From contig OZ024741.1 in assembly GCA_964016885.1 (NCBI GenBank), positions 89,156,001-89,220,000 on the forward strand: a stretch of 64,000 bases of DNA, in the 5' to 3' direction. Shown piece by piece: positions 329 to 63,707 of this stretch (position 1 is its first letter; every line of letters begins with the position of its first letter). Position numbers and translations under genes: made by a program. The DNA is from Eledone cirrhosa (Eukaryota). Below the pieces are notes generated by a model. That model did not search any database and had not been told where the DNA came from. It saw only the letters and a program-made list of their open reading frames with translations.

Positions 329-794
329 TTGTGTGATAGCTATGGCGAAAAAGGTTGTATGGTGGACAAGGTTGAAAGGGCTGAGGTCAGACACCTTTCT
401 CTCCGGCCAACAACTGATTCTTTTTTTCAAATACCACTTTGGAAGAAGAATCAGGGTGGAGAGAGAGGTGCTGTACCCCTGCAAGTTTTATGAAAGGTGG
501 GTGAAAGTGGCGAGAATGGCCCGAGTTAATGGGCCTTCTCTCTATATCAGCCTGTAGGTTGAGGAAAAGGAGGAGGAGAGGAAAGGAGTACAAGCTCTTC
601 GTACTCCTGGAGATGAGGGTTGCACATTTTTTTCGGGGGTATGTGTTACCCATATGTAATGTCTCCCCTATTGGGGAAAATCGACTAACTTTTTAAATTC
701 CATTTGTGATAACATTTTACACGTTTTTATTGTATGTAAACTTCCCCCTTTGTATTTGTCCCCTTCTTTTGTGCCCCTGTGGCTAATAAAGAAA
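329..794 (+). mobile_element. 5'-truncated L1/Tx1-clade LINE (ORF2 C-terminus + 3' UTR) in (TATC)n/(TGTC)n
   Basis: Encodes AMAKKVVWWTRLKGLRSDTFLSGQQLILFFKYHFGRRIR, near-identical to 56620-57079. Ends GTGGCTAATAAAGAAA followed by TATC repeats. Confidence 0.9.
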
Positions 795-856
795 CATATC
801 TATCTTTCTATCTATCTATCTATCTGGCTGGCTGTCTGTCTGTCTGTCTGTTTGTC

Positions 857-15345: not shown

Positions 15346-15348
15346 ATG

Positions 15349-15384
<36 letters not shown>

Positions 15385-15474
15385 ATATAAATACATTCAT
15401 TTATTATGGCTATTGGTGAGTTTTGTTGCTCTAAAGTTTCACCAGAGCACTCACAGGAACACCAGTCTTGTCTG

Positions 15475-24136: not shown

Positions 24137-24212
24137 ACAGATTGACTTTGTTAGTTTCAGAAGATCCCGTTAAGGGTGAAAGCAGCGATTCTTTGCTTAA
24201 ACTTTAATCTGT
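24137..24212 (+). ncRNA. Variant hammerhead (CAGAAGA core) in pLTR; antisense copy 20642-20717
   Basis: ACAGATTGA..AGTTT-CAGAAGA-T-CCC GTTAA GGG-T-GAAA-GCAG..TTGC-TT-AAACT-TTAATCTGT. Extended bulged stem I. Confidence 0.65.
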
Positions 24213-24219
24213 TATTTTA

Positions 24220-24309
<90 letters not shown>

Positions 24310-24962: not shown

Positions 24963-25399
24963 TCAAATACCACTTTGGAAGAAGAATCAGGATGGAGAGA
25001 GAGGTGCTGTACCCCAGCAAGTTTTATGAAAGGTGGGTGAAAGTGGCGAGAATGGCCCGAGTGAATGGGCCTTCTCTCTATATCAGCCTGTAGGTTGAGG
25101 AAAAGGAGGAGGAGAGGAAAGGAGTACAAGCTCTTCGTACTCCTGGAGATGAGGGTTGCACATTTTTTTCGGGGGTCTGTGTTACCCATATAAACTGTCT
25201 CCCTCTATTGGGGAAAATCGACTAACTTTTAAATTCCATCTGTGATAACATTTTACACGTTTTTATTGTATGTAAACTTCCCCCTTTGTATTTGTCCCCT
25301 TCTTTTGTGCCCCTGTGGCTAATAAAGAAATATATCTATCTATCTCTTTCCCCTTTGTATTTGTCCCCTTCTTTTGTGCCCCTGTGGCTAATAAAGAAA
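24963..25399 (+). mobile_element. 5'-truncated Tx1 3' fragment with tandemly duplicated 3' end
   Basis: Near-identical to 56715-57079. Last ~50 bp (CCCTTTGTATTTGTCC...AATAAAGAAA) repeated after a TATC tract. Confidence 0.9.
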
Positions 25400-25452
25400 T
25401 ATATCTATCTATCTCTCTCCCTCTCTCTCTCTCATACACACACACACACACA

Positions 25453-26087: not shown

Positions 26088-27075
<988 letters not shown>

Positions 27076-34945: not shown

Positions 34946-34958
34946 ATAAATAAATATA

Positions 34959-35410
34959 TATTGTTATACTTGGGAGAGGTCATATTGTTGTAATAATATT
35001 GCCAGAAATAATAACAGAACACACTCACTGTTTGGTTGCTTTTCGCTTCTGTATCTTTTATATCTCCACAGTTAATTCATTCGGTCCTCAATGTTTACCA
35101 TTGACTGACCAACGGTCAAAAATACAGATATATTATAGATAATGGGACTATATATGTGTCTTTAATATCTATATTATATCTATATTTTTGACCGTTGGTC
35201 AGTCATGGTAAACAGTGAGGACCGAATGAATTAACTGTGGAGATATTAAATATACAGAAGCAAAAACCAACCAAACAGTGAGTGTGTTCTGTTATTATTT
35301 CTGGCAATATTATTACACAAATATGACCCTCCCCAAGTATAACAATATTTGTTCCGACACACGATTTCATATCAAAAACCTTGCAAAACAAATTCATTGC
35401 CGACAATAAA
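34959..35410. mobile_element. Asymmetric foldback element in (TA)n; second copy 35862-36119
   Basis: Arms ~34959-35140 / 35167-35348 plus ~60-bp extension (TTCGACACACGATTTCATAT.AAAAACCT). Both copies share the arm end point. Confidence 0.8.
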
Positions 35411-36117: not shown

Positions 36118-37098
<981 letters not shown>

Positions 37099-39750: not shown

Positions 39751-39979
39751 TATATATGCATACATATACACATACTCATACATTCATACATGTATACAGT
39801 TCGCCCTTTGACACCCGGTGTGAATAAGGAGTGTTGTGTCTCAGTGCGTGGGTAGATTATCCACTCATGAAAATTATTCATCCAAAACACTGATTTTTCA
39901 AACTTCTGAAAACATTATTTCTCTTTTCCTCTCTCTTTCCATGAAATTCTTTCCTTTCTTCCTTTCTGTCTAGCTATTC

Positions 39980-40053
<74 letters not shown>

Positions 40054-40054
40054 A

Positions 40055-40087
<33 letters not shown>

Positions 40088-40380
40088 GTCTGACGCGTGG
40101 AACATCGCCGGTAAGCTTTTTTGTTAATTTCTATACAAAAAACTGAACTAATTGTTTGAAAAAACATAACATTTTGTAGATTAGCTCCCAAGCTGAATTG
40201 TCAGCTGGGTGGTAATCCCATTTTTCGCCCCTGTGGGGGCGAACATTTTATTTTAAAAGTTGTTTTAAAATATCAGATTTTACAAACTAAATAACTTGAG
40301 CAACACAAGAACGCTGGAGAACGTTAATAGAGAAAAGAGAGAAAGAGGCAGATATTAACGTTATATCTGCTTCTGCTACT

Positions 40381-42216
40381 ATGGACGTCGCCATAGATAC
40401 GACTGTCAACAAAGAGGAAAATATATTACCACTTGAAAATTTTAAAATTTCTACCGTCGAAGCGGAGAAAAATAACAATAACACACAGGAAAACACAGGA
40501 ATTAAACCCATTAACATACATACACATGAAAAAGACATCAACAACTCTACAGATACATCTACACATAATGTTTCACCTCGACAAGGAACTGAGATTTCCA
40601 GCACCGAGGCCAACAACGATAACAACAACAACAACAACAGCAACACCACACAAAAAAAGAAAATGTCTTTCGCTGAAACAGTAAACAAAATACAAGATTT
40701 TATAAATCTTGATATCTCCAACGCAAGAGATATGCTCCAGCAAGGGAGAAAATTTGTAACTTTCGAAGAAAGAGGTGGGTTTAGAATTAACTCACACCTT
40801 GGAATAAAGGAAGACACAATTCGCAGATCAGTCACCTTTAGGACTGTGTCAAATTCCACAAGAATGCCGACATTTGTTAGCCAAGCAGATATAGAAGATA
40901 CTTTCAAGGAAATTCTAGCAAATGTCGATTTTCTCCACCGAGGAAAACAGTACGGAAGTGTTTCCGTACTGTTTAAAAGCGAGGCACTCGCCCAAAAACA
41001 TTCTGTGACACCAATGGTGTCAAAAGCATACACCTTTTTCCCTACATACATGGGAAAAAGGACACAAAAAATAAAAATAAAAAACATACCCCCAAACATT
41101 AACATCTGGTGGATCTTGGCTGGCTTCGTAGAGCCAGAAACTAATATGATTCTTTCGATACGAAAATCTATTCGACAAAGGTGGGCGGGTACAGATTTGG
41201 AGATTCTGTTGCAAATGAAACCGGAGAGAATCTCGAAAATACCTGAAAGAGTCGTCATCGATAATAACAACAAAATAAACATTTCGGCTGAAGGACGAAA
41301 ATTTCATTGCTTTCGCTGTGGTAGCACAGCACACCTAAAAGCCTCTTGCCCACAAACACACAACACCAACATCATTAAAAAAACACTATTACCAACACCA
41401 ACACCAAAACAACCACCACCACCACAAGTACAACGACAGACGAAACGAGCAACCACACCAAAACAAACAGACACTCAACCAACAATAACAGAAAAAACAG
41501 AAACAACACCCCTGAAGAACACAGCCCCACTCCATCCCACTCCATCAAACACTACCACAAACACACACACCGAAACACTACCACCACACAACATACCCCT
41601 ACCCCACACACCTGACGATTATTATTCATCGACGGATGAAGCTGCTTCTCCTTCTTTAAGTGAAGAAGAGGGAGAACCGGGGAAATCTAAAAAACAAAAA
41701 AAGCGACACCACAAAACCCCCAAAACTCCAATCACCAACACCAACACACAACCACAGACACAAACAACAACACAAACAACAACACAAACAACACCACAGT
41801 CAAACATCCCCCTATCAGCAAAACCAGCACCAACACCACCCCAAACACAAGCACCCACCATAAAAAGAAAACTCCCGGATGAACAACAAACTAAAACAAT
41901 ACAACAAAAACACAAACAACAATACGCATACATCAACACAAACAACAAGAGTTTGATGGAGGTCATCTCCCAAAACCCCAAGGTGGAGGAGGGCAAAACT
42001 TTCGTCAAGGCAGAATCGTCTCCACACCTTAAACTTATAAGGGTTTCTATGGAAACCTATAAAGACCTGAAAATTAAATTTTCACAGGACGTGGGCAACC
42101 CCTGCCACAAACCCATCAACCGCGTCCTGTTGAAAGGTTTCCCCACCCCACCCAACACCCCATCCAGCACCCAAATGGAGATTGAACAACCCGATCTCCA
42201 GGAAACGAAAAGGTAA
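40381..42216 (+). CDS. LINE ORF1p (gag-like, CCHC zinc knuckle)
   Basis: Open 611 aa; CFRCGSTAHLKASCP; Asn-rich N-terminus and Thr/Pro/Gln-rich linker; homologous to 51432-53375. Confidence 0.9.
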   Translation: MDVAIDTTVNKEENILPLENFKISTVEAEKNNNNTQENTGIKPINIHTHEKDINNSTDTSTHNVSPRQGTEISSTEANNDNNNNNNSNTTQKKKMSFAETVNKIQDFINLDISNARDMLQQGRKFVTFEERGGFRINSHLGIKEDTIRRSVTFRTVSNSTRMPTFVSQADIEDTFKEILANVDFLHRGKQYGSVSVLFKSEALAQKHSVTPMVSKAYTFFPTYMGKRTQKIKIKNIPPNINIWWILAGFVEPETNMILSIRKSIRQRWAGTDLEILLQMKPERISKIPERVVIDNNNKINISAEGRKFHCFRCGSTAHLKASCPQTHNTNIIKKTLLPTPTPKQPPPPQVQRQTKRATTPKQTDTQPTITEKTETTPLKNTAPLHPTPSNTTTNTHTETLPPHNIPLPHTPDDYYSSTDEAASPSLSEEEGEPGKSKKQKKRHHKTPKTPITNTNTQPQTQTTTQTTTQTTPQSNIPLSAKPAPTPPQTQAPTIKRKLPDEQQTKTIQQKHKQQYAYINTNNKSLMEVISQNPKVEEGKTFVKAESSPHLKLIRVSMETYKDLKIKFSQDVGNPCHKPINRVLLKGFPTPPNTPSSTQMEIEQPDLQETKR

Positions 42217-42257
42217 GTGCACCTTTCGTCCTTTTTCTCCAACTTTTCTTCACCAAC

Positions 42258-45200
42258 ATGGCTGGTTTACGAGTTGGAACCGTGAATGTGCGTGGCCTAG
42301 GGATGCCCTGGAAACAGGGCCAACTTTTAAACGACCTTAGGTCACACAGTATGGATGTGATAGCCATCACCGAGTCCAGAATCCACAACAGGCAGCAACT
42401 AACCCCCATCTTCGACGACTTTGAGATCTACGCATCTCTCTGTCAGCCAGGAGGTGGAGGTGGAGTGGCTGTTATGTTTCGGAAGAACCTGGACGTCGGA
42501 GTACAGCAAGTACACTTGGACCCGGAGGGTAGACTGGTAGTCCTAGACGTGAACAGTATCGGAGGTAGAGCCTTCAGACTGGTGGCCGTTTATGCCCCGA
42601 CCGGGCATTCGCAATCACGGCCAGACTTCTTTAAGCGTCTAGAGTCTTTTCTGGGAACGTCTCGCTCCTTACTTTTAGTGGGGGACTGGAATGGTATCCT
42701 AGATGCACGATGGGACTATGTGGGAGCATGTCCCAGTAGAGCGGGGTGCAACAGCCTCAAAACTTTAATCGGCCAATTCCAACTGGCCGATAGGTATCGA
42801 CTGGATTTCCCGACTGCACCACAGTGGACGTGGGTAAACCGCAGTGGGACATCTAGATCGTATTTAGATAGGTTCTTCATTAGAGAAAGGGACAAGGATA
42901 TGTTAAGCTGTCCACGAATGCACATGGTTGCCTATTCAGATCACAAGTTAGTCGTCTGCTTAGTCAACCGTGATAGAATACATAGACAGGGTCCCGGATA
43001 CTGGAAGCTGAACGTGTCGTTGCCGGCACGTAAAGCTTACAGTGAACGGATAAGTAAACTAGTCAAGCAACAGTTAACGGGAGCCATCGTCAACAATAGA
43101 TGGTGGTACTCTCTCAAGAAAGCAATTAGAATAGAATCGATAGGGTATAGCAGAGAGTTAGCCTTAAAGAAAAACAAAATAGAAAGAGAACTAGTAGCCA
43201 AGGTAGAGGAGGCACTTAGAAGTGGCAACGCGGCTAGAGTGTTAGCGTTGAGAACGGCACTGGACCAGTTCTTCGATGCGAAACACGAAGGCTGCGTGGT
43301 CAGAAGCAAAACACGTGCTCTAGGAAACGAAGGAGCGAAAGCTGTCAGCTGGGCCCGAGTGGCGGAGGCAAAAAGTGGCAACAAGTCCACGATTCGGTCT
43401 TTGAAAGACCAAAACGGACGCGTGCTACTTGACCCCAAGCAAATGTGCGCGGCCTTTCAGCGGCACTTTGCGCGACTGTTTGAGCAGAACGACGGTGAGC
43501 CGAACGGGGCAATGGACTTTAGTTCATACCTCGGCGGCCTGCCGCGTCTCTCGAACACGGACGCCGAGTTCTGCGAAAGACCGATCACGGACACTGAGAT
43601 ACGGGACGCTCTGGGCCGCTGCGGGAAACGCAAGTCACCCGGTCTAGATGGTCTACCCTACGAATTTTACATAGGCATGCCGGACTTGTTCTCTGGCGTC
43701 CTCGAAGCCGTCTACTGCAATTGGCAGCAGAACGGGAGAATTCCCAGTTCTGCAGGCAAGGGCGTAGTAACGCTGATCAGGAAAGACGAGAACAAGGGGG
43801 ACGAAATTAACAACTTCAGGCCCATAACTCTGCTCAACACAGAGTTAAAGATTTTGGCCAAGGTGCTAGCGACGAGGTTGGCGCTTGTCGTCGAGAACCT
43901 GGTAGGGAAAGCGCAAACGTGTGCAATCCGGACCAGGTCCATACACGACAACCTCCACCTCATGCGATACATCATAGAGAGGGTGGGTAGTAAACCCGGC
44001 TTCGGTGGGGCTCTGATCAACTTGGATCAGTCTAAGGCATTCGATAGGGTCGACCATCGATACTTGGAAGCGGTTCTCAAGGCGGCCGGTTTCCGTCCCG
44101 TGTTCAGAGGATGGATCGAGGCGATGCACACCAGCATCTGCTCGAGGGTCAAGGTGAACGGCTACCTATCGGAGCCGTTCGCAATCACGCGTTCCATTCG
44201 ACAGGGATGCCCTCTCTCCTCCATTCTGCGGAAATTGGAGCTGTTGCAGGGCATCCCCCTAGAACCGGGACTGCGCAAAGCGGCGTCGGCTTATGCCGAC
44301 GACGTGACAGTAATGGTGTCGAGCACCTCGGAAATCGGGGTGATCGGCAACATACTGAAAGAATACGAAACGCTGACGGGAGCAAAACTAAACCCAGACA
44401 AGTCTGTCGGTTTGCAACTCGGTACGTGGAGAGGCAAACCGATGACATCCGACAGCGTCGTTGGACGCTGGACGGACGGACCGGTGAAATTGCTCGGGGT
44501 CTGGTTCGGTCCAGACCTCCAGGTGGAGAAAAACTGGAACGAGGTCACGGCCAAGGTGTTTGCACTCACTCAGAAGTGGGCAGAGTGCAAACTGTCCTTG
44601 AAAGGTCGAGCGGAGGTGGCGAACACTTTCATAGCGTCCGTCATCTACTACCGCTTGACTGTCGTGCCTTGTCCCCGTGAACACCTCGCCAAGATGGAAC
44701 GCATGCTCTTCCAGTTTCTGTGGAAGAAGCAGGCTCCGCTGGTGAGGAGATCCGTCTGCTGTCAGCACCCTTCCAACGGAGGGCTGGGAATGCCGTGGCT
44801 GATGATGCGCAAACATGCGCTGAGGCTGCGGCATCTCCAGGTATTCCTCACCGACCCCCAACCAGTGTGGGCACCGTTTGTGAGACAGGCTTTCCCACAG
44901 CTCGTCTCGCTAACGGAGCTGCAGTCCTGGGTGAAGAAAAGACCGAAAACGATGGGCGCCTGGCACATTGAATGCGCTCAGGCGCTCACAGTCCTCTGGC
45001 AAGCGGGCGCAGCAATCAGTGGAGACTCCACTTCGACATTCTATAGAGGGATTGTACGTTACAAGGGCGACGACGTGCTCGGAGAGACTCTGGGCGTCGA
45101 AGACGATGAGCTCACCAGTATGTTTGGTAGGACTTTCCGCCCGGGACCTATGGACAACTTCCAGAGGTCCCTGGCCTGGCAGTGCTACCGAGGAGCTCTA

Positions 45201-45675
45201 CCGGTTCGTGACAAGATCTACAGGCACGGACGCCCTGGCAGGGATCCTTCCAAGAAGACGTGTCCAAGATGTGCGCAGGACATTGAAACAGTTCTGCACG
45301 CAATTGTACACTGCCCGGGCGTAAGCGACCTGTGGAACTATGCAGAACAACTGCTGTCGCGTATGGGACAAATCCAGTTGACTGCCGAGTCCATAGTAAG
45401 GATCAAACCGCCAGACTCTTTCAAAAACGAAAGAGAGGCGGTTTTCCTCTGTACGGTGGCTATGGTGAAAGAAGTTATATGGTGGACGAGGTTAAGGACT
45501 GAGGACAGATGCCTTTCTCTCCGGACAACAATTGATTCCCTTCTTTAAGTATCACTTTAGAAGGAGAATCAGGGTGGAGAGAGAGGCATTGCACCCCAGT
45601 AAATTTACTGAAAGGTGGGTGAATGAAGCGAAAATGGCCCGAGTGATTGGGCCTTCTCTGTTTATAAGCCTGTAG
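42258..45675 (+). pseudogene. LINE ORF2p: APE endonuclease + RT + C-terminal Cys-rich domain (slightly damaged)
   Basis: TVNVRG, GDWNG, SYLDRFF, YSDH, PGLDGLP, RPITLLN, LDQSKAFDRVDH, QGCPLS, YADD, CPRC..ETVLHAIVHC. ~10-codon deletion after QGCPLSS; frameshift at ~45497. Confidence 0.93.
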
Positions 45676-45959
45676 GTTGAAGAAGAGAGCAAAAGGAAGA
45701 AAGGAGCACTTGCACAACACGCTCATCGAGTTGAGGGTTGTTCTATCGACGGGGTATTAAACAACCCATTTGTGGCGCCTCCCCCCTATTGGGGATTTCG
45801 ATTGTTGAAATTGTTTGTTTTTATATTTTTTACACGACTATGTAAAATCCCCGGCATGTCTTTGTATTGTCCCCTTTCTTGTTGCGCCCTTGTGGCTAAT
45901 AAAGAAATCTATCTATCTCTGCCTGTCTGTCTATCTATCTATCTAACTATCTATCTATC

Positions 45960-45991
<32 letters not shown>

Positions 45992-46571
45992 ACTATCTAT
46001 CTATCTCTGCCTGTCTGTCCCCTTCTTTTGTGCCCCTGTGGCGAATAAAGAAACATATCTATCTATCTGTCTGTCTGACTGTCTATATTTTTCCTATTCA
46101 TTTTTTCCTTTCATTATTATTAATATTCTCGTCATTCAGGTCACACGGACACATCTCTTTTGCTCACTTTAAATTGTTGCTGTTGTCCTTGTTGTTGTCG
46201 ATGTTGTCGTCATTGTTATTAATAGGTCACAGCGTTTCCATGCGAGCAATCCGTAAAGTGCGGCATGTTAAGAGGAATTATTGCGGTTCAGCGCTTCCGA
46301 GTGCTATATAGGCGCACACTGAACAACATTCATGTATGTACACACACACACACGCGCACGCACGCACATCCCCCACATACAGCACACGCACATACACACA
46401 CACACCACACACACTCACACAGAGACAGACAGGCACACAGACAGACACACAGACGCACACACACAGACACATACACAGGCACAGACAGACACACACACAA
46501 ACACAGACACACACACACACACACACACACACGCGCACACGCACGCACACACACACACACACACGCACGCG

Positions 46572-46655
<84 letters not shown>

Positions 46656-46657
<2 letters not shown>

Positions 46658-48900
46658 AAGTCTGTCAAAAAAGTATTCGACCTTAGCCTGGGTAAAAATG
46701 ACGTACTTGGTAAGGTTCAATTGTTAACCACCTCCAACGTAGGCCCTTTTTCTCCTCCATACACTTAACTCAGTGATCCTTTCCCTGTCTTGAATGGTCC
46801 TCAGTTCCACCACTGTTGTCCGCATGATGTTATCTCGGCTCTCAAAATGTGAGCCTTTCAGTAGCTTCTTCCTTTTGGGGAACAACCAGAAATCAGAAAG
46901 AGCCATGTTTGGAGAGCAGGAAGCCTAGCAAATGAGCGAAATGCTTTTCTTTACCAAGAAACTTTGGAAGTGTTTCGATGAATGAGCAACGATATTGTCA
47001 TACTGCAACTGCCAGTTTTGCGAGGTTCGCAGATCCGTCCCTAGCGCTGAACTGCATCACAAAAACGTCTGGGGATTTCATAGAAGTACTTCTTTGTAAA
47101 TGTTTGTCCTTCTGTCAAGTATTTGTGCTGCGCAAAGCTTCGATAGTCGAAGAAAACAGTCAGCGTTACCTTCATTTTGTTCCGCACCTGACGTCATGGG
47201 CGAGTTTGGATGCTTCCATTGTGATGACTGACTTGGTTTTCGCGTCGTACTAGTACACCCACATCTAATATCTAGTTCTCACGGTATTCAGGAACTCAGG
47301 GTCCTTGTTGGCAATATCCAGCAGATCCTGCGCAACCTCAAGATGAAATTGTTGTTCCTGAGAAAATATTTGGCTGCCACTCTGCACGTGCCTAAATCCT
47401 TCCTTAAAATCATAATAGGTTTGACAGGAAGTTCTCGCTATTTTTCAATTTTACAAGTTAGAAGATTCGCCATCATTTGGGATTACCGTTTGCCATCGTT
47501 TCGGAAGCCATATGATTCCATCCCTGTAGAATTCTTTTGGCTTCGATGCAAAAAAATTCCGTCTGCTACTGATTTAACTGGTCTTCATTGCCGAAGGTCT
47601 TTGACTGCATTGCATTGCTTATTGAGAGAAAAAGACGGTAGTTTGTAGGTGCGAGGTCGGGTAAATATGGCAGGTGGGGCAGACCCTCCCAACCTAGCTC
47701 CAGTAGCTTCTCACGGGTCATCCTTGATGTATGTGGCCGAGTATTATCATGAAGCAATTGAACGGGACCATGGTGTGGGTGTACCTGTGCGATTTTCGCC
47801 GCTAATCTGTGAAGTTGTTGGCAATAGATGACAGAGGTAATGCTAGTGTTTTGTGGGAGCAGCTCGTAGTGGGTGACACCTTTCCAGCCATATCAGACGC
47901 TCAGTAGGGCCTTGCAAGGGTAGAGGCCAGCCTTTGATTGCCCATTGTTCATCACCAGTGACAATGGGACAAAACCAGTTGTTTATATACGATGGTAGCA
48001 GAGCAGAGAAGTTGCGACTGCCGCCCGCCATTTATGATGACGGTCAGTCACATTGTGGGGCACCCATTGGTCCTGCTTGGATACCTTTCCTAGTGCATGC
48101 AAGTGATTGAGGATGGTTGCTCTAAGCACTTCGGAGAGTTGACATGATGTCTGGCGTAGGTCGGCTTCCACCAGCTCACGAGGCTGCTCATCATTGAAGT
48201 CGGATGGACGTCATGCGCGAGATCGGTCTTCAAGGCTTTAATCACCGGAAGTGTGCGAACCAGTCCCTGGTACTACGTTCAGATATGGTGTGTGACCTAA
48301 ATGCAGTGTTAATGCGTCGATTCGATGCTGCTGCGCTTAGGCCAGATTTGAAGTCATAAGGTAAACAGCCATGAATTATCGATTTAGATAGATCCGGGTT
48401 GCTTTCCCTTTGACGGTGTAACATAAAATGAGAAATGCACATAGTGTATACCAACGTCACTTCTTATACAATGTGCACATGTGCAACCGTCAATGTTTCC
48501 AGAAAACCTACCAAAATACCTCCTTTTGAAAAATGGCGGGAACTTACTGTCCAACCAAATATATGTAGTATCTTTACTTATCCCAACCTCGTCAGCGATT
48601 TCCCGCACCATCAAACGAGGATCTCCCATTATCAAGATCCGTACTTTCCCCATAACAACTGCATTGCAAATTGTTCGATGCGTGGCCATCTTTGAATCAG
48701 CAGAAATATTTTATTTAGATAACACCCATGGTATTGTCTCCAAAAGCCTGTTGAATTTCGCAAATTGTTTCCGCTTGAATATCTCCAAGATTTTCACAAA
48801 ACTTGATGCAAGATCATTGCTCCACATGTCATGTTATCACGAGCGAAATGATTATGCAACGAGTTAGTACAAAAACTCACACACTGGTTTCCTGGCACAT
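46656..48900 (-). mobile_element. Decayed mariner (outer element), split by a second mariner
   Basis: DPRLMVREIADEVGISKD (48570-48640) continues as MILRKDLG..RVAAK (<47413); SDFWLFPK.KKLLKG.HF near 46850-46900; TIR-like AAGTCTGTCAAAAAAGTATTCGACCT at 46658. Confidence 0.75.
47413..48561 (-). mobile_element. Decayed full-length mariner (inner element) with both TIRs
   Basis: TIRs TAATAGGTTTGACAGGAAGTTCTCGC / GCGGGAACTTACTGTCCAACCAAATA. Motifs WVPH, IVTGDE, HDNTRPH, HLPYLPDLAPTNY. Confidence 0.88.
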
Positions 48901-49083
48901 CCAGCGAGCTCACAAAAAATCATGTATGCGCAATTATCTGCCAAACTATCTGCTAGTCTATATACCAGTCTAACTATTTATCAATCTATCTGTCAGTCAA
49001 ACTATCCATCTGTCACTCTATATACCAAACTATCTGTCTGTCAGTCTATTCATCCATCCATCCATTCTTCCTTCCATCCATCC

Positions 49084-49145
<62 letters not shown>

Positions 49146-49146
49146 A

Positions 49147-49235
<89 letters not shown>

Positions 49236-49237
<2 letters not shown>

Positions 49238-50560
49238 GCGCAAACACGTACTGCGGCTACGCCATCTCCAGGTACTCCTGACCGGTGAACCGGTGTGGCT
49301 GTCGTTTGTGAGACAAGCTCTTCCACAACTCGTCTCACTAACAGAGCTGCAGTTCTGGGTCAAGCGAAGACCGAAAATGGGTAGCTGGCACCCCGAGTGC
49401 CTTCAGGCGCTCACAGCCCTCTACCAAGCGGAAACGGCAATCAGCGGAGACTCCACTTCGACATTCTATAAGGGATTAGTGGAGGATAAGTGGGACGACG
49501 TTCTAGGGGAAACTCTAGGCATCGAGGAGGACGAACTGACCAGTCTGTTCGGGAGGACTTTCCGTCCAGGGCTTATGGATAACTCCCAGAGGTCTCTGGC
49601 CTGGCAGTGCTACCGAGGAGCTCTACCAGTTCGAGACAAGATCTACAGGCACGGACGCCCTGGCAGAGATCCTGCCAAAAGGACCTGTCCTAGATGCGAG
49701 CAGGACATCGAAACCGTTATGCACGCAATTTTTCAGTGCCCAGAGGTGACCGACCTGTGGAATTATGTCGAACAGCTACTGTCACGTGTGGGACTCATCT
49801 AGTTTTCAGCCGAGTCCATGGTGAGGATCACCCCGCCGCCTTCATTTAAGAATGAAGGAGAGGCGGTTTTCCTCTGTCTGGTGGCTATGGCGAAAGAGGT
49901 AATATGGTGGACGAGGTTAAAAGGACTGAGGGCAAATACCTTTCTCTCCGGACAGCAACTCATCCCCTTCTTTAAGTACCACTTCAGGAGGAACGTGAGA
50001 GTGGAGAGAAAGGTGCTACACCCCAGTAAATTCGCTGAAAGGTGGGTGAATGTGGCGAAAATGGCCCGAGTGAATGGGCCTTCTCTGTATATAAACTTGT
50101 AGGTTGAGGAAGATAAACAGAGGGAAGACAGGAACACCTACAAAACGTGTTCCTAGTGTTGAGGGTTGTTCTATCCACGGAGTGTAAAACAACCCTGCAG
50201 TAACGTTCTCCCCTATTGGGGATTTCAATTATTATTTTATTATATATAAGGGCGGTGGATTGGCAGTATCAGTAGAGGGTCGGACGCCATGCTTTCCAGC
50301 ATAGTTACGTCCCTTTACGATCTGAGTTCAAATCCCGCCGAGGTTGACTTTGCCTTTCATCCTTACGGGGTCGATAAAATAAAGTACCAGTAATGCACTG
50401 GGTAATTGCTGGCCTTGTGCCTAAAGTAGAAACAATTATTTTATTATATATAGTTTATTGTTATTTATTAATGTTAAAGTTATATGATTTTTATGTAAAA
50501 GCCCCGCCGTCACGTCTTGTAATGTCCCATTTTTGTACGCTCCTGTGGCAAATAAAGAAA
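49236..50560 (+). mobile_element. 5'-truncated Tx1 copy in (TATC)n, carrying a SINE
   Basis: Begins MRKHVLRLRHLQ directly after (TATC)n and ends AATAAAGAAA-(TATC)n. Confidence 0.92.
50249..50434 (+). mobile_element. Meta-like tRNA SINE with 18-bp TSD
   Basis: TSD ATTATTTTATTATATATA at 50231-50248 and 50435-50452. Empty site in the sister copy at ~51035-51060. Confidence 0.92.
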
Positions 50561-50562
50561 GA

Positions 50563-50626
<64 letters not shown>

Positions 50627-50627
<1 letters not shown>

Positions 50628-51167
50628 CCATCGTGTGGATCACCCGCCGCCTTCATTTAACACCAAAGCAGAGGCGGTTTTCCTCTGTCTGGAGGCTATG
50701 GCGAAAGAGGTAATATGGTGGACGAAGTTGAAAGGACTGAGGGCAAACATCTTCCTCTCCGGACAACAACTCATCTCCTTCTTTAAATACCACTTCAGAA
50801 GGAGGGGATGAGAGTTGAGAGAGAGGTGCTGCACCCCAGTAAATTCACTGAAAGGTGGGTGAATGTGGTGAAAATGGCCCGAGTGAGTGGGCCTTCTCTG
50901 TATATAAATCTGTAGGTTGAGTAAGACAAAAGAGGGAGGACGGGAACATCTACAAAACGTTTTCCTGGTGTTGAGGGTTGTTCTATCTTGTAAAATAATC
51001 CTGCACTAACGTTTCCCCCTATTGGGGATTTTGATTGTTATTTTATTTTAATATATAGTTTATTTTAATTTATTAATGTTAAAGTTTACACAATCTTTAT
51101 GTAAAACCCCCGCCGTCACGTATTGTAATGTCCCATTTCTTGTGCACCCTTGTGGCAAATAAAGAAA
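50627..51167 (+). mobile_element. 5'-truncated Tx1 copy in (TATC)n
   Basis: ORF2 C-terminal remnant plus 3' UTR, same subfamily as 49236-50560. Confidence 0.9.
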
Positions 51168-51431
51168 CATCTATCTATCTATCTCTCTCTATCAGACGTG
51201 TGTAACTTCGCGGAGAAGTTAATTTATGTAAGAAAAAAACGTGAGTTTTCAGTTAAATTTTATATTATTGTGTAACTTGCCCCCCCCCCCCCCCCCCGTC
51301 TGGACCTTCAGGTGGTGGGTCAACTCATTTTCGCCCCTACAGGGGCGAAATATTCGTTTGAAAAATTTTTTCTCCATCGAATTTAAAAAAAATAAAAAAA
51401 AAAAAAAAAAAATTATAACTTTGATTACGTT

Positions 51432-53375
51432 ATGAAGGCTGCGTTCAACGATAATGGTGGTGGAGAGTCGGTAAGACTACATAGCTCACAGTCAACATCG
51501 TCTTCTTCCCTTTCCTTCTCAATAGATACTATAGAGATGGAAAGACGAAATGAAAATGTAAAAACAAATTCATATCCAAGCAACACAAATGACACCAAAC
51601 AGTTCAATGACAACAAAAATAACAGCAACACCAATAATGATGATAAAAACAACAATGATAACAACAACAAAGAAAAAAATAAAGACAACACCAATAACAC
51701 CAGCATCAAAGACAACAACAACACTAACACCAATACCAAGGAAAATACGAATAATATCAACATTGGTGACAACAAGAATAACAACAACAATAACAACAAT
51801 AATGACAACACCACCAACACGGATAATTCCACAAAGAAACCAAAATCTCCTTTGCACAGACAGCTCAGAAAAAGGAGGAACTGACATATCTCGACATAAC
51901 AAATGCCGAACAACTTTTAAAAGACGCTAGGAGATATGTCACTTTCGAAAAAAAATGGTGCTTTCAGCATCAATTCTTCGGTAGAAATTCGCAAGGAAAC
52001 TGCTCTCAAAACGATAGTTTTTAGGACAGTTTCCAATTCTACCCGAAAACCAGTCCAATTGTCACAGAAAGAAATTGAACTGGTTTTCAAAAATTCAATG
52101 AATGATATTGCATTCATTCAAAGAAGCAAACTTTTTGGGAGTATTTCGGTACTCATGAAGGATCAATTGACGGCCCAAAATTACTCTGTGTCGCCAATTG
52201 TATCCAACCTGTACACCTTTTTCCCTACATACATGGGAAAAAGGACACAAAAGATCAAAATCCCGAGTGTCACACCAAAGGTGAACATATGGTGGATACT
52301 GTGCGGCTTCATCAATTTTGATGAAGACAGAATACTGTCAGTAGGAAAGTCCCCCAGAGATGTATTCAATGGGACTAGCATTGAAGTTCTGGTGCAACTG
52401 AGCTCAGAGCGAATAGCTATGATTCCACAACGTGTACTCCTGGACGGACTCACCTACATAAACGTTTCGGTTGAGGGTAGGCGGCCTTCATGTTACCATT
52501 GCTTTAGCAGGGGTCACCTGAAGGCTTCCTGTCCTAAATTAATGAGTCAAAAAAAGGCTCTTCTGCCGACACCCATCAAAACAACACAACCACCAACACC
52601 ACCACCACAACAACAACACTAACACACAAAAATAACCACAACAAACACAGTCCCAGCCAACCCCACTCCACCTAAAACCACTGCAAAATCACATGCAGAC
52701 ACAACAGCTCCCCAAGACATACCCCTCCCCAATCACACAGACGATACAACAGATGAGGCTATCTCGCCATCACCCAGTGAAGACGAGGGAGAACCCCATC
52801 GCTTGAAAAGAAAGAAAAGACATCACAAAAGCAAAAAACGAGCAAACACTACCACAAACATACAACCACCAACACAAACAACAAAAACATCACAAACAAA
52901 ACCCCCACCTCCTGAAAACAAAATATCTACAACAAAACGAAAGCACACACAAGAACTACAGACAAAAACAAACACAACACAAGAAAATTACCCTTACACT
53001 TACATAAACACTGAAAACAAAACACTAATGGAGACCATCACGAACGACCCTTCGGTGAAAACCGAAGGGAAAACTTTCGCCCACTCTATTAAAAATAACA
53101 AAAAACTGAACCTAAAACTGATTAGGGTCCCTATACAAACTTATAGGTCCCTAAAAGAAACATTTGAGAAGGATGTGGGGAATTCCTGCGTGAAACCACT
53201 TAACCGCGTCCTTCTCAAATGTCTCCCCACCCCAGACACCCCTATCCCACCAGATCCCACCCCACCAAACATCTCCGTCCCCACCCCGCCGGAAACCACC
53301 ACCCATCCAGACAACCCCTCCAACACCCACATGGAAATCGTGCGGCCTGGTCCCCAGGAGACGAAGGGTGAGTGA
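51432..53375 (+). pseudogene. LINE ORF1p, disrupted
   Basis: CYHCFSRGHLKASCP knuckle; FFPTYMGKRTQKIKI shared with 40381; breaks near 51880-51930 and a stop at 52620. Confidence 0.9.
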
Positions 53376-53408
53376 TCTCTTTTCCTCTTTTAACTTTTCA
53401 GCACCAAC

Positions 53409-56400
53409 ATGGCCAATATAAGAGTTGGATGTGTGAACGTACGCGGCCTGGGGATGCCCTGGAAACAGGGCAAACTCTTAAACGACCTCAGGTCGCACAG
53501 TATGGATGTGGTAGCCATTTGCGAGTCCAGGATCCACAGCGAGCGACAGCTGGCCCCCATCTTCGATGACTTTGAGATCTACGCATCTCTCTGTCAACCC
53601 GGGGGTGGGGGCGGAGTTGCCGTTTTGCTGCGGAAACACCTGAGCCTTGTAACAGACGGTACATCTGGACCCGGAGGGTCGACTGGTGGTCCTAGACGTT
53701 GACGGTAGTGAAGGTGGAGCCTTCAGGCTGGTGGCCGCATATGCCCTATCCGGGACACCGCGGCCAGACTTCTTCAAAAGTCTAGAGACTTTTCTGGGAA
53801 CGTCCCGCTCCTTGCTTTTAGTGGGGGACTGGAATAGAATCCTAGATGCACGCTGGGACTATGTGGGAGCATGTCCGATAAAGGGGGGTGTAACAGCCTC
53901 AAACAGTTAATCGACCGATTTGACCTGGCCGATAGATATCGACTAGATTTTCCGACTGCGCCACTGTGGACGTGGAGTAATCGTAGCGGAACATCTAGAT
54001 CGTACCTAGATAGGGTTCTAGTTAGAAATAAGGATAGGGACATGTTAAGCTGTCCACAAATGTTCATGGTTGCCTATTCAGATCACAAACTAGTGACCTG
54101 CATGGCCAACCTTGATAGAACCCATAGACAAGGACCCGGCTACTGGAAGCTGAACTTGTCGTTACCGACAAGCAAAGCCTACAGTAGACGGATTAGCACT
54201 TTAGTTAAACAGCACTTGACAGCGGCCATTGTCAACAACAGATGGTGGTACTCTCTCAAGAGGGAAGTTAGATTAGACTCGTTAGTTTTTAGTAAAGAAT
54301 TAGCGTTAGATAGAAATAGAACCGAGAAGGAACTGGTAGATAAAGTAGAAGAGGCAATTAGAAGTGGCAACGTAGCCAGCGTGCTAGCAACGAGACCGGC
54401 CTTGGACCAGTTCTTCGACGCAAAGCACGAGGGCTGCGTTGTCGGAAGCAAAATACGTGCTCTGGGAAACGAGGGAGCCAAAGCTATTAGCTGGGCCCGA
54501 GTGACGGAGGCAAAAAGTGGCAACAAGTCCACGATTCGGTCTTTGAAGGACCAAAACGGACGCGTGATACGTGAGCCGAAGCAGATGTGTGCGGCCTTTC
54601 AGCGGCACTTTGCTCAACTGTTCGGGCGGGGCGGCGCGCCGGGAGGGGCTATGGATTTCGGTCCATACCTCGACGGCCTACCGCGACTCTCGGACAGCGA
54701 GGCAAAATTCTGCGAAAAGCCGATTTCAGCCGCTGAAATAGGGGACGCGCTGAGCCAATGCGGCAAACGCAAATCTCCAGGTCTCGACGGTCTACCCTAC
54801 GAATTTTACGTAGCAATGCCGGACTTATTCTCCGGTCTCCTGGAAGCGGTCTACTGCAACTGGCAACAGAACGGGAGAATTCCCAGTTCTGTAACCGGGG
54901 GCGTGGTCACACTAATCAGGAAGGACGAGAATAAGGGGGATGACGTAGGCAACTTCCGGCCCATAACTCTGCTAAACACAGAGTTACAGATTTTGGCCAA
55001 GGTGTTGGCAAAGAGGCTGGCGCTTGTCGTCGAGAACCTGGTGGGAGAAGCGCAGACATGCGCAATCCCGACCAGGTCCATACACGACAACCTCCACCTC
55101 ATGCGATACATCATAGAGAGGGTAGGGTGTAAACCCGGCTTCCGTGGGGCCCTGATCAACCTTGGATCAGTCTAAGGCTTTCGATAGGGTTGACCATCGT
55201 TACCTGGATGCGGTGCTCGAGGCGGCAGGCTTCGGACCCGTGTTCAGGGGCTGGATTGCTGCAATGCACAACAGCAACATCTGCTCAAGGGTCAAGGTGA
55301 ACGGCTACCTCTCGGAGCCGTTCCATATTACGCGATCCATTCGACAGGGATGCCCTCTCTCCTCCCTTCTGTACGTACTGACTCTCGAGCCACTAGTGCG
55401 GAAGTTGGAGCTATTGCAGGGCATCCCTCTGGAACCGGGACTGCGGAAAGCGGCGTCGGCCTACGCCGGCGACGTGACAGTAATGGTGTCGAGCGCCTCG
55501 CAAATCGAGGAAGTCGGCACCTTACTGAAGGAATACGAAAGTTTCACAGGAGCGAAGCTGAACCGGGACAAGTCCATCGGTTTGCAACTCGGATCGTGGA
55601 GAGGCAAACCGATGCCTTCCGATGGCGTCGTCGGACGCTGGATGGAAGGACCGGTAAAGCTGCTCGGGGTCTGGTTCGGTCCGGACCTCCAGGTGGAGAA
55701 GAACTGGAACGAAGTGACGGCCAAGGTGTTTGCACTCACCCAGAAGTGGGCCGAGTGCAAACTATCCTTGAAAGGTCGAGCGGAGGTGGTGAACACTTTT
55801 ATAGCGTCCGCCATCTACTACCGCTTGACCGTCGTGCCTTGTCCAGCCAAAACGCTCGCCAAAATGGAGCGCGCGCTCTTCCAATTCCTTTGGAAGAGGC
55901 GGGCTCCTTTGGTGAGAAGATCCATCTGCTGCCACCACCCTTCAAACGGAGGGCTGGGGATGCCGTGGTTGACGATGCGCAAACACGCGCTCAGGCTGCG
56001 GTATCTCTACGTATTCCTCACCGGACAACCGGTGTGGGCCCCGTTCGTGAGGCGAGCCTTCCCACGACTCGTCTCGCTGACCGAGCTGCAGTCCTGGGTC
56101 AAGCAAAGACCGAGGAAAATGGGCGACTGGCACATCGAATGTGATCAGGCGCTCACAGCCCTCTGGCAGGCGGACCCGGCGATCAGTGGAGACTCCACTT
56201 CGTCATTCTATAGAGGGTTGATCCGCAGCAAGTGCGACGACGCGCTCGGTGAAACTCTAGGCGTAGAGGAAGTTGAACTGGCCAGTCTGTTTGGTAGGAC
56301 CTTCCGCCCGGGACCGATGGACAACTTCCAAAAGTCCCTGGCCTGGCAGTGCTACCGAGGAGCTCTACCAGTTCGAGACAAGCTCTACAGACATGGGCGC

Positions 56401-56842
56401 CCGGGCAGGGACCCTGCAAAAAAGATCTGTCCGAGGTGCATGCGAGACGAAGAAACCGTCGTGCACGCATTCATACACTGCCCGGGCGTCACTGACCTGT
56501 GGGGCTATGTAGAACGACTATTGTCGCGGGTGGGACCAATCCGGTTGACCACCGAGTCCATTGTCATGATCAAACCGCCACCCTCCTTCAAAAACGAAGG
56601 AGAGGCGGTTTTCCTTTGTATGATAGCTATGGCGAAAGAGGTTGTATGGTGGACAAGGTTGAAAGGGCTGAGGTCAGACACCTTTCTCTCCGGCCAACAA
56701 CTGATTCTTTTTTTCAAATACCACTTTGGAAGAAGAATCAGGATGAAGAGAGAGGTGCTAACCCAGCAAGTTTTATGAAAGGTGGGTGAAAGTGGCGAGA
56801 ATGGCCCGAGTGAATGGGCCTTCTCTCTATATCAGCCTGTAG
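53409..56842 (+). pseudogene. LINE ORF2p (APE-RT), disrupted
   Basis: Frameshifts near 53655, 53880, 55160 and 56760; catalytic YADD mutated to YAGD. Confidence 0.92.
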
Positions 56843-57627
56843 GTTGAGGAAAAGGAGGAGGAGAGGAAAGGAGTATAAACTCTTCGTACTCCTGGAGATG
56901 AGGGTGGCACATTTTTTCGGGGGTATGTGTTACCCATATAAACTGTCTCTCTCTATTGGGGAAAATCGACTAACTTTTTAAATTGCATTTGTGATAACAT
57001 TTTACACGTTTTTATTGTATGTAAACTTCCCCCTTTGTATTTGTCCCCTTCTTTTGTGCCCCTGTGGCTAATAAAGAAATATATCTATCTATCTATCTGC
57101 GTATCTATCTGCTATTCTACCTAACTACATGTCTATCTTCCAATCTATCTCTGTATGCCAGTCTATCTCTTTATCTGTCTGTCTATCTGCCATTCTAACT
57201 ATTGGCAGTTTATATGTCTGCCAGTCTGTCTTCACTATCTCTGTATCAATTCGTCTGTCAGTTTATATATATATATGCAAATATGTCGTCTCATTGTCAA
57301 TTTATCTCGATTTGTCACTCTCTATCTACTAGCTAGACTGTCTGTCTGTCTGCTAGCCTATTTTGGCAGTCGTTCTTAGAGAATTTCACAATGTTAGAAA
57401 TCATTGTTTTGTAAGATATGTTTTTTTTTTTTGCTTCTGTTATAACTGTTGCTATTGGCGGCGTCGTTGTGCTTGTTTTTATTGATATCTTCATTTGGAG
57501 TCGTTGTTGTTGTACGCACCGTCATTCATTTTAATAAAAAATAAAATAAAAAGAGAACGCTTTGCACGTGATGGCTACATGACACCAACCCCATCCTTCC
57601 ATACCCTTGTTTGTTTGTTTGACTGTA

Positions 57628-57707
<80 letters not shown>

Positions 57708-58683
57708 GAGTTTATGTTGGTTATATTTCAGTGACAGCCATCTTTGGCTGTGACCTCTTCAGGCAGTTTGAATTAGTATGGTATAGACAAGTACATATGT
57801 TATTTAGGTGTATGATATTGTCAATACTCTGATATGCCCAGTTCCTTGTTGGGTTGTTAATTCACTGGGGAACTGGAGTCATATGAATTCAAACAAACGA
57901 ATTTTCGTGTCACAGGTCCCCTTCTCCTCTCATTGGTCAGTTATTAGAACATTCCTCATTCTAAGTGTTGTTATTGTTGGAGTTAGCTTAAAAATTGATA
58001 AAATGGTAGAAGGGACAAGGTGTTAAAGGAACAAAATAACAAAAAAAGTGTCAAACTTCCCATTGTTCAGTTCTGAGAGCATTCCTCAGTCAGAAGTCTA
58101 TAGAATTCTTTCTGGGGTGAGGCTCCCTGTAGTGTTTTTGCCTGCTATTGTTCAGTACATTTGACCTCCACCATTATTTTGGTACTGTTGTTGTTGTAGT
58201 GGTCAGCTTATATCTTGCTGCTGCTAACAATGTAGAAGTATCCAGTTTGTGTATTTTCTTCATCCCTCCCGCCACCATCGTAGTGGTGGTGGTGGTGGGG
58301 GGGGTTCTTTCATGTATATGAAGAAATATAAGGCAATAAATGAAGAAAACAGAAAATAAATAAATAATATAATAAAATAAAATAATTAATATAATTTGTG
58401 TAATTTGAAAATAAATAAATAAATAGAGAATAAAGAATAAAGAGTAAATGAGAGATTGGTGAAAAAGTAATGATAATGTATATGGAGAAGTGAGAAATAA
58501 TGTAGGATAAAGTGTGTGTGTGTGTGCTATAACCAATCTCAAGGTCAGAATATGTTGGATAGATTGGTATGATACAAGATGTTAAGATGAGATATTCAAT
58601 GTGTTTGTGTTATAATCTATCTCAACTTAAAATAAATATAAGGTGATACAGTGAAGAGGGCAGAAAACAAATAACAAATTAAT

Positions 58684-58877
58684 TGTTTCTACTTTAGGCA
58701 CAAGGCCAGCAAATTACCCAGTGCATTACTGGTACTTTATTTTATCGACCCCGTAAGGATGAAAGGCAAAGTCAACCTCGGCGGGATTTGAACTCAGATC
58801 ATAAAGGGACGTAACTATGCTGGAAAGCATGGCGTCCGACCCTCTACCGATACTGCCAATCCACCACCCTAATAAAT
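58684..58877 (-). mobile_element. Meta-like tRNA SINE with 18-bp TSD, in one arm of the Penelope inverted repeat
   Basis: TSD AACAAATAACAAATTAAT at 58666-58683 and 58878-58895. Empty site at ~62615-62632. Confidence 0.92.
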
Positions 58878-59214
58878 AACAAATAACAAATTAATAAAGA
58901 GAAATCAAGATTTAAGATTGGAACTTGAAAGTCAGAAATCTGGTAAATTAAAAGTGTTTGTGTTATAGATGTTGGCCAAATTATTATGGCTGTGTCCGAT
59001 TCTATCTCTAGGCTATCATGGTGTCTGCTCCGCCTGGGTTGTTCCCTGTGGCTTGAGGGGAGTTCACAACCTAGGGTGTTGTTATTGCCCATATAGCTTG
59101 AGGGAGGTCTGGCCGAGAGGTGTTTTCATGTTCTGTAGAAGTCCCTATAGCTTGAGGGGAGTTCACATCTTCTTGTGTTGCTACTGTCCATATATTTTGA
59201 GAAAGGTCCCGGCT

Positions 59215-61862
59215 CTAAGGTGTCTGCATGTCCCATGTCCTGAAGAAGTCGGTTCTGAGGTTTATCAGGCCGCTTCCACCTCTTAGTATCTCGAGGGTCT
59301 CGTTCAGGCATAGTTTGCATATGCAAGATCCCCCTTTATCGGGTGGTACTTTCCTGATTATGTACCAGGCCAGAGAGTATGGGGTCCTGTCCAGCTTAAG
59401 CTTCCAGATCAGGTCGGAGAGAGCTGTGCTTTTCCTTTTCGCCTCCTTCTTGAATGAATGGCGATGGTTGTACCAGCGGTCCTTAAAGCTCGTTGATGTG
59501 GCTCCTATGTAGAGGTGTTCGGAGTTGGGGGTTTTAACCCTACAACCGTACACTAAGTTCTTCTTGAGACATTCATTACCAAGGGGGCATGATTCGGGGT
59601 TTCTGCAGTTGCAGAGGGTGGTCGGCCTCTGCGTGCCTAGATTAGGGTTCTCATTATGTGTTACATGTTGGTCTTCCCCCATGCTCGGTGGGGGGTCCTT
59701 GGGTCTGTTTGTGTTTCTTGGGTGGGCTCTGGGTCCCCCCTTCCCTCCTTTCACATGGTTCTGCTGAGTGTTTGTATTGCCATCTTCTGGTTGTGTGTGG
59801 TTTTTAAGCCTACTTCTGTTGATGCTAGCTATGTGTTAGGCCAAATTTCTCGTGGTGGAATACGAAAGCTTCACAGTGTGTCTGTTGAAGATCCTGTGGT
59901 ATCTGTGGTCCCTCGGGAAGCATTTGTCAAGTGCTCCAAAGAATAATCGGGCCAAGCTTTTCTTTAGGGCCGCTGAGTAGGGTGGGTTGTACCACGTGAT
60001 TTGTCGGTGTCTTCTCCTATATGTGTGGGTTGGGGGCTTCGTGATTTGTTGGAGATTTGTTGGGTTGCTGGTGGTTTACGCACTGTTGCTTCCCTTTTGG
60101 GCTCTATACTTTTTGTTATCTTCGCGGCCCGGATTTGTGGGGTGGTTGTTGTCCGCCCCAGGAGATCCATCGTGGGGTGGTCGCCCGTTCCCCCCCACCC
60201 ACGTTTCCTGCGGTTGGGGTTGTCCATCCTGGGGTAGTTAGCGTCACGCCTGAGACTGCTACTCATATTGTGCTCCATCTCGTGGTCAAGCGCACTAGTC
60301 CCCACCACCCGTGTGGTGGTGTCTGGTACATGGTGCCTATTTGATTCTGTTCTGCCTGTATTGTTAGGGTTCGCCCTCCCCCCTCTGGCAACGCGGTTGT
60401 GGGTGTCTGTTGGGCTATCCACCTCCCGGCTTTTCGGACTATATGTTATATTTTTTCCATGTGCCGCCTTTAGAGCTACGTTGTAATATTCCGCGTGGTT
60501 GTTGAATATTTCCTTACTTGCGGACAGGCTGGAGATCCTGTCCGAGACACTCTTCACCACTGCCTTGGTTATGGATCTAGGGTGGTTTGATTTGGCGTTA
60601 ACATATACGAGTTTCTCGTTGGGCTTGTGGTAGGGGTAGTATTGCTCGGTGTTCAGGTTTAGGGTGGTGTCTAGGAAGTTAACTACCTTCCTATTTGGGT
60701 CTATTTCTATGCTGAGCCCCTGGTTCTTAAAGAAATGGCGAATACGCCTCCTCATACCCTCCAACATATTGGTGCTGTGGTCATGTACTGTGAATAGAGC
60801 ATCGTCACGATATAATCCGCCGCCCAGGCAGGGGATTTCATCTTTTATCTGCTTCAGCAGGTAGAGCCCAACCAGGTCCGTTACCTGCGCTGAGTCGCTG
60901 GAGCCCATCGTGATGTCAAAGTTATTTGGCCAATCACTCCTGGTCCAAAGGTCTCCATCGAAGCGGATTAAGGTCTTTCTTGCGGCGTGGATGATGCTCA
61001 CCTCCTCTCGGGTTAGGTCCGTATTGGACATCGCTAAAAATAGGGCCTTATTAAGTACTATGAGTGAGATTGAGGAGTAGTAGCTTGCGATGTCCAGTTG
61101 TATAAAGCTGGTCCTACTTTTCTCATGCAGTATTTTGAACCATTCTATTACTTCTCTCGTGCATGACCATTGCTGTAATTTGGTTTTCTTCCGAAGCTTG
61201 GGCAAAATCCTATCCAGTATTCTTTTACTGACGATCCCTAGGTCAGATCTGGAGGGGGCTATTAGTCTGACAGGGAGGTCGGACTCAAAGTTTGACTTGT
61301 GGTCTTTAAGGGTAATCCGCGGCTCCCTTGGTTGGTATGGGGCCGTCCTGTCCTCTATGCCGATTCTGGATATAATCCTGTAAGCGGTGGCATTGATCTC
61401 ATCCAGGGTAAATCCAGGTGTTTTTTTGTAGCACTTCCTCAGTTCCCTGAGAATTAGCTTATTGTACAGTTCAGTGTTCATGTTGTAGAGGTTGTTTGTT
61501 TTGTCAGCATGGACAAGTATTCCAGTTGTCCCTTTAAGTACTATAATCCGGTTTCTCAGGTGTCTGAGGTACTCCTGACTTCTGGTTGGGTTTCCGGAGA
61601 ATTTGAGGTTGGATATGATGTTAATCATCTCGTTTTCAAACTCCTCCATTAGTCAGTTGTGGGGGGGATTCCTCCTTGATCGAAAAAGGTACTCCATGTT
61701 TTCTGTGTTTGTAGTTTTCTGCGTTCCTCTTTCGAAGTGGAACGCCTTCCATCTCATCCTACGGATGAGGGAGTCCGTACTCTTGATGAGATCACTGGTG
61801 TATTCTCGTTTATCAGGTAGGGGGATGTCCTTCGGTGACGCTAAGGTTGCCAGTTTATCCAT
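59215..61862 (-). pseudogene. Penelope RT + GIY-YIG endonuclease (in-frame stop at 61653, frameshift before WYNPP)
   Basis: RRMRWKAF, ADKTNN, QLDIASYYSSI, MGSSDSAQVTDL, LYRDDAL, YHKP, WYNPPY; CNCRNPESCPLGNEC; LVY..YIG..FKDRW.NH; C.LC..E. Confidence 0.92.
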
Positions 61863-63532: not shown

Positions 63533-63587
63533 ACTGCCTGAAGAGGTCACAGCCAAAGATGGCTGTCACTGAAATATATATAGCAGT
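63533..63587 (+). ncRNA. Minimal type I hammerhead ribozyme in Penelope pLTR (truncated antisense copy 57723-57768)
   Basis: Identical to 26747-26801. Confidence 0.92.
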
Positions 63588-63656
63588 AATAAACGAAGCT
63601 AAATTTTAATCATTTGACTTTTATTTAACTTTATTTTATATATATATATATATATA

Positions 63657-63707
<51 letters not shown>

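Follow-up and report, generated by a model that had tools for sequence, protein, structure and literature searches.

The window, a 64-kb stretch of the Eledone cirrhosa genome, contains several copies of one LINE family (Table 1). Their 3' ends are marked on the plus strand by AATAAAGAAA at 785, 25321, 25390, 45898, 46044, 50551, 51158 and 57070. All eight continue with two variable letters (NN; in the same order CA, TA, TA, TC, CA, GA, CA and TA) and then with a TATC-phase repeat, without poly(A). The original prediction had listed 3' ends of this kind, and each one is present. Ten plus-strand matches to the 3' motif were detected, eight being these ends and one (4076) being unrelated. The remaining match at 31178 runs into TCATCACCATC. 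At 31172–31210 we noticed the 3' motif of an ATT-type sister clade, which leads into TCATCACCATCACCATCATT; no further element sequence was found upstream of this motif, which is possibly a tiny sister-clade remnant. The orientation is uniform, as had been claimed, since there are 19 runs of (TATC)≥3 and no run of (GATA)≥3 in the window.

Some boundaries had to be corrected. The copies exist, the head of copy A starting at about 40083 instead of 40092 and that of copy B at 51194. The end near 46053 is present as well but belongs to a 40-bp scrap (46016–46055), and both ends at 25330/25399 were found, 25346–25401 being a duplicated 3' tip.

Table 1. Copies of the TATC-associated LINE family and adjoining repeats in the window.
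Feature	Positions	Strand	Remarks
B-subfamily 3' fragment	329..796	+	TATC on both sides
Young B-subfamily fragment	24963..25401	+	99.7% to nearest relative; 14-bp duplication
Duplicated 3' tip of the young fragment	25346–25401	+	
(TATC)n array	39965..40082	+	5' of copy A
Copy A	40083..45909	+	Near full length; ends AATAAAGAAA-TC
Copy A ORF1	40381..42216	+	Stop to stop 40300–42216; low-complexity N-terminus, CX2CX4HX4C knuckle, Pro/Thr-rich tract
Copy A ORF2	42258..45548	+	APE endonuclease, RT, C-terminal zinc finger
3' scrap, B subfamily	46016..46055	+	40 bp; inside TATC/TGTC tract
(TCCA)n/(TATC)n array	49053..49235	+	5' of tandem stack
Copy C	49236..50562	+	5'-truncated; SINE inserted at ~50221–50447
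(TATC)16 spacer	50563..50626	+	Between copies C and D
Copy D	50627..51169	+	5'-truncated; oldest-looking
Short TATC/TC spacer	51170..51193	+	Between copies D and B
Copy B	51194..57081	+	Full length; stops and frameshifts in both ORFs

Compared with copy B, ORF2 of copy A lacks 27 nt in frame near 44227 and shifts frame by 2 nt near 45494; it is therefore probably defective. The family had been assigned to the L1/Tx1 group. ORF2 matches the profiles Exo_endo_phos (2.7e-13), RVT_1 (4.9e-23) and, below the cut-off, zf-RVT (5.6e-5). Among solved structures the RT is nearer to L1 ORF2p (E 1.6e-36) than to R2 (E 1.2e-18), in a comparison that held no CR1, RTE or I references. The best PDB match of the endonuclease is 2V0R, the L1 endonuclease carrying the Tx1L hairpin, by a marginal difference (E 2e-6 versus 1e-5 for the L1 endonuclease). 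5'-truncated copies, target-site duplications and the lack of LTRs, all features of L1-group APE-type elements, are present, and assignment to this group is supported. ORF1 has a weak zf-CCHC match (E 0.11), shows the CX2CX4HX4C knuckle and is placed with CCHC/RRM/ZCCHC3-like Atlas clusters at 0.90–0.92. An ORF1 with a CCHC knuckle and an RRM-like region marks the Tx1 clade. The family is likely to be a Tx1 member. Named Tx1 proteins were absent from the protein-search matches and the cluster look-up, and no ZCCHC3–Tx1 link was found in the accessible part of PMC9004415.

The head of copy A, with its leader of imperfect repeats, was found again at other loci. Such leaders are passed on between loci, which suggests that transcription may start in the upstream repeat. 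As a separate observation, the heads of several subfamilies (40092–40130, 51194–51230 and flanks of L002, L043 and L059) share a motif similar to GACG(C/T)GTG and, after it, GTAAG; we take the two to resemble a downstream promoter element and a splice donor, respectively.

Copies C, D and B form a head-to-tail stack in this order (49236–57081), with TATC spacers between them. Because their nearest relatives among the sampled genomic loci are 95%, 86% and 98% identical, respectively, the copies are, as judged from sequence, of different subfamilies and probably of different ages, in line with the predicted tandem array of different-age copies; copy B shows 98% identity to many genomic copies. 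Among the first 100 ends of contig C1, 25 of the 99 neighbours are no more than 7.5 kb apart, and 23 of these have the same orientation. A control with uniform placement, which assumes a homogeneous genome, gave a mean of 2.5 and a maximum of 9. Newer copies were found both before and after older ones.

The window contains further repeats. At 20627–24227, 692-bp inverted repeats (99%) flank a minus-strand ORF of 530 residues with RT-like motifs (YRDD), next to (TA)n; this ORF had no Pfam match, and the element is presumably Penelope-like. What we take to be a second Penelope-like element (57640–63674) consists of nested long inverted repeats around a 562-residue RT-like ORF (59964–61652, minus strand). 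It also holds a GIY-YIG ORF (59218–59835, minus strand; E 5e-4) and has related repeats at 26356–27011. Palindromic (MITE-like) elements occur inside (TA)n tracts at 4368–4725, 14773–15404, 26423–26852, 34958–35348 and 36426–37033, and two diverged copies (75–84%) at 2582–3509 and 46660–48560 were labelled by eye as a Mariner-like remnant. Among the sampled loci, the 3' flanks of L021, L027, L042 and L228 reveal repeated insertion into TCTATCTATATATTAC.., the start of another multicopy element which we assume to be Helitron-like, and at L017 a (TAACCC)n telomere-like repeat directly precedes the 5' end of a B-subfamily copy.

Genome-wide counts are based on exact matches to the 17-letter 3' motif in the 3.0-Gb genome; they miss diverged copies and one subfamily with an extra A. 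The motif occurs 15,935 times and its reversed control three times. AATAAAGAAA-NN-TATCT was found at 12,801 of the 15,935 ends (80%) and never in the control. This excludes a chance association of the 3' ends with TATC, and the genome-wide check of 3' flanks thus bears out what had been seen in the window. Five A's follow at only three of the 15,935 ends, the opposite repeat orientation at four.

TATC on the 3' side could be either target or tail, and the 5' junctions of truncated copies were used to tell these apart. From the window and the genomic loci L001–L140 we sampled 160 distinct 3' ends. After dropping 30 ends shorter than 150 bp, 23 leaving the locus edge and 16 below 85% identity, 91 were kept. 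Ten of these were full-length-type copies and were set aside, because their imperfect-repeat leaders are inherited across loci. Of the 81 truncated copies, 51 (63%) have a TATC-phase run of at least 7 nt at the 5' junction and none has one in the opposite phase. The background, determined at 57,000 positions from 20 evenly chosen 10-kb stretches, is 313 (0.55%), which corresponds to an enrichment of about 115-fold. By identity class the counts are 25/36 (at least 97% to a relative), 17/28 and 9/17. Copies lacking TATC on the 5' side, which the original prediction would have taken as a sign of an element-made repeat, do exist in part (30 of 81 lack a 7-nt run), but for several of them (L080, L112, L033 and L048) the target is a short motif and the duplication is clear, and a few are rearranged or inverted copies. 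About half of the 30 (up to ~15/81, judged by eye) show neither TATC nor a duplication and are read as deletions or later rearrangements. A further idea, namely that the element accompanies the majority of TATC arrays, was dropped. In 200 kb of random sequence, one of the 11 arrays adjoined a copy; a head-like repeat at three other TATC arrays is part of a different element (checked for L121).

Target-site duplications were analysed in 133 junction pairs, including loci picked for having one or two 3' TATC units. Duplications with non-repeat letters were found in 44 of the 133. They are 7–25 bp long, with a median of 18, or of 16 if only letters outside the element are counted. In 39 of the 44 the duplication starts directly after NN, at TAT, a soft tally because several of the 39 permit one mismatch inside repeats and, like the logo, biased by the selection of part of the loci for one or two 3' units. 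The five later-starting cases comprise four that are ambiguous or tandem duplications, and L072, whose TATTAT site appears to have gained a single TATC unit. L112, L048 and L033 are the unambiguous cases. At the 3' junctions of the first two, TATC units are missing altogether; their target sites, TATC^TATAAT and TATC^TATATT, offer 3–4 pairable letters next to an intact upstream TATC. The copy at L033 splits the endonuclease ORF of an unrelated LINE at a lone TATCT without gain of repeat, and the unsplit version of this site occurs 552 times in the genome.

Taken together, the 5' flanks, the duplications and the paralogous empty site support TATC as the target and not as an element-made tail. 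The predicted specificity for (TATC)n/(GATA)n therefore stands as far as TATC is concerned, but an array is not required: as read from these sites, a short motif of about TATC^TATCTAT serves as the target, and TATC arrays are its richest source. The net gain of repeat units on insertion is almost nil. From sequence, the nick register can be fixed only to within multiples of four letters, because a nick before TATC with nothing added and a nick after TATC with one RNA-derived unit yield identical sequences. The terminal NN agrees with the upstream letters of the target in only 4 of the 39 duplications and with the NN of the nearest relative in 103 of 151 copies (38 of 48 at 99% identity or above; chance 29%), and is thus inherited with the element.

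A sister-clade LINE, whose ORF2 is 61–67% identical, shares the 3' motif and runs into (ATT)n at 2,152 ends genome-wide. We computed an RT tree of 69 rows (quick IQ-TREE, SH-aLRT only), consisting of 54 of 64 genomic RTs, kept if at least 60% identical and with an assigned 3' end, and of 15 unnamed homologues as outgroups. The 31 TATC copies and the 23 ATT copies each group in a clade of their own, both with a support of 99, so that target type follows the tree with one change. An alignment of the endonucleases (20 TATC versus 20 ATT copies) reveals the same split with 33 near-fixed differences, which go back to one evolutionary event and hence single out no residue. One of them is situated in the hairpin loop, which aligns with the L1 betaB6–betaB5 loop (Ser in 19/20 TATC, Ile in 18/20 ATT copies). 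On the 5' side, ATT was found in 8 of 8 sister-clade copies reaching the reference start and at 6 of 22 truncated junctions, against a background of 1% (a hand count with one reference and older copies). Targeting is less well shown for this clade than for the TATC clade, and its repeat may still be an element-made tail. The 3' flanks of L174–L213 contain (ATT)n arrays followed by at least five recurring heads of different elements and an abundant SINE; the ATT-associated elements form a guild.

The family always inserts immediately 5' of TAT in TATC-phase DNA and in a single orientation, with few exceptions, making duplications of 7–25 bp and carrying no poly(A). We think it quite probable that this abundant L1-group Tx1-like LINE does so by means of its APE endonuclease nicking the (GATA)n strand at the motif. 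By analogy with Tx1L, R1Bm and L1, the endonuclease would read about TATC^TAT (PMC1950540, PMC1919474). The transcript would pass AATAAA into the downstream TATC of the donor, and a short UAUC stretch on the RNA would pair with the nicked strand, from where reverse transcription would start; such priming would account for the precise, tail-less junction. AATAAA is located only 6 nt from the element end, which is closer than the usual cleavage distance. Its position and the reported finding that RNA–target annealing aids priming of SART1 and R1Bm (PMC7265360) lead us to propose this read-through priming. As every insertion would leave one copy of the target on each flank, subsequent insertions, whatever their subfamily, could land beside earlier ones, which would give rise to head-to-tail stacks with newer copies on either side of older ones. 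Tandem SINEU-3 copies have likewise been ascribed to sequential insertion (PMC4494074).

Alternatively, a loose endonuclease might nick near TAT while the repeat on the RNA 3' end picks the nicks that are used, the preference being inherited from the donor flank and not with the protein. We consider this unlikely. The stronger conservation of the letters downstream of the junction, with which the RNA could pair (+1 to +7, 35–39/39), than of upstream letters (27–30/39), although biased by locus selection, would fit, as would the unit gained at L072, the presence of TAT in the targets of both sister clades with their nearly identical hairpin loops, and a tail–target coupling of that kind described for RTE elements (PMC6007223). 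L112 and L048, however, combine few pairable letters with an intact upstream TATC, net unit gain is rare, and the target type changes once on the RT tree with a matching split of the endonucleases. It is likewise doubtful that the donor-repeat copy on the RNA mainly chooses the target; in that case a lineage could exchange (ATT)n for (TATC)n with an almost unchanged hairpin (NRIG versus NRSG). If true, RNA-borne choice would make the two clades a natural pair of high copy number in which to dissect how LINEs choose their targets, and perhaps to reprogram this choice.

An element-made microsatellite tail, similar to those of CR1/L2, with otherwise random insertion is very improbable and largely refuted: the up to ~15 of 81 copies with TATC at the 3' end only and the L072 gain are what it would predict, but it leaves unexplained the TATC enrichment at random 5' truncation points, duplications beginning at the repeat, zero-unit 3' junctions and the empty site of L033. 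That insertion is random and copies merely survive, or are ascertained, where microsatellites are dense is hardly conceivable even in this very microsatellite-rich genome, as the phase is precise to the base (a fixed two-letter offset, with the opposite orientation practically absent) and (TATC)≥3 arrays number only ~55 per Mb versus ~3,400 TA runs per Mb.

Endonuclease targeting of the short motif thus remains our preferred reading. Repeat targeting is a known LINE habit and the surprise is moderate; the TATC/GATA target adds to this class. With every insertion the family duplicates TATC, and it makes up a large, unreported part of the repeat organization of the genome. Single mutations and loop grafts have only partly answered how APE-type LINE endonucleases gain or change specificity (PMC1919474, PMC1950540). 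Two sister clades on different repeats, together with thousands of dated insertions, offer a tractable natural experiment.

The specificity had been suspected to be undescribed, and in the full-text literature searched we found no GATA/TATC-targeting LINE; such a target may be listed in Repbase, Dfam, Kojima and Fujiwara 2004 or the target figure of PMC4494074. Libraries of Octopus vulgaris contain 80 L1-Tx1 families (56 Mb, 13 recently active), among which the TATC family may be included; the terms 'target site' and 'GATA' occur zero times in the accessible text of these papers (PMC13282606, PMC8967140).

Known systems are compared here as described in the accessible parts of the cited papers. 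The R1-clade elements SART1, TRAS1 and R1Bm are also repeat-specific APE LINEs (PMC7265360, PMC1919474), but belong to another clade and have other targets, and SART1 uses poly(A). Human L1 (TTTT/AA) has the closest RT among solved structures, a short motif and similar duplication lengths; it differs from the TATC family, which has no poly(A), another motif and a CCHC ORF1. Like R1Bm, Xenopus Tx1L has a sequence-specific endonuclease of the APE type (PMC1950540, PMC1919474) and shares sequence-specific insertion with our family, yet its target is a site in a DNA transposon and not a short repeat motif. In PMC4494074, more than 20% of flanks serves as the criterion for a target sequence preference; the values here are 63% for truncated 5' flanks and 80% for 3' junctions. 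An element-derived tail independent of the target, as in CR1/L2/RTE-like elements, is not observed, with L072 as one possible exception. According to the same source, Kibi targets (TC)n, Koshi (TTC)n, and the crocodilian Tx1-1_Crp/5_Crp/6_Crp, Tx1-1_Gav and Tx1-2/3/5/8_AMi target (TTCC)n/(TTTC)n. The TATC family resembles them as an APE-type L1-group LINE inserting into microsatellites. It differs in its TATC-phase target, which matches none of these four repeats, in its ATT-tied sister clade, in its invertebrate host with ~16,000 ends, and in the use of single-unit targets as well.
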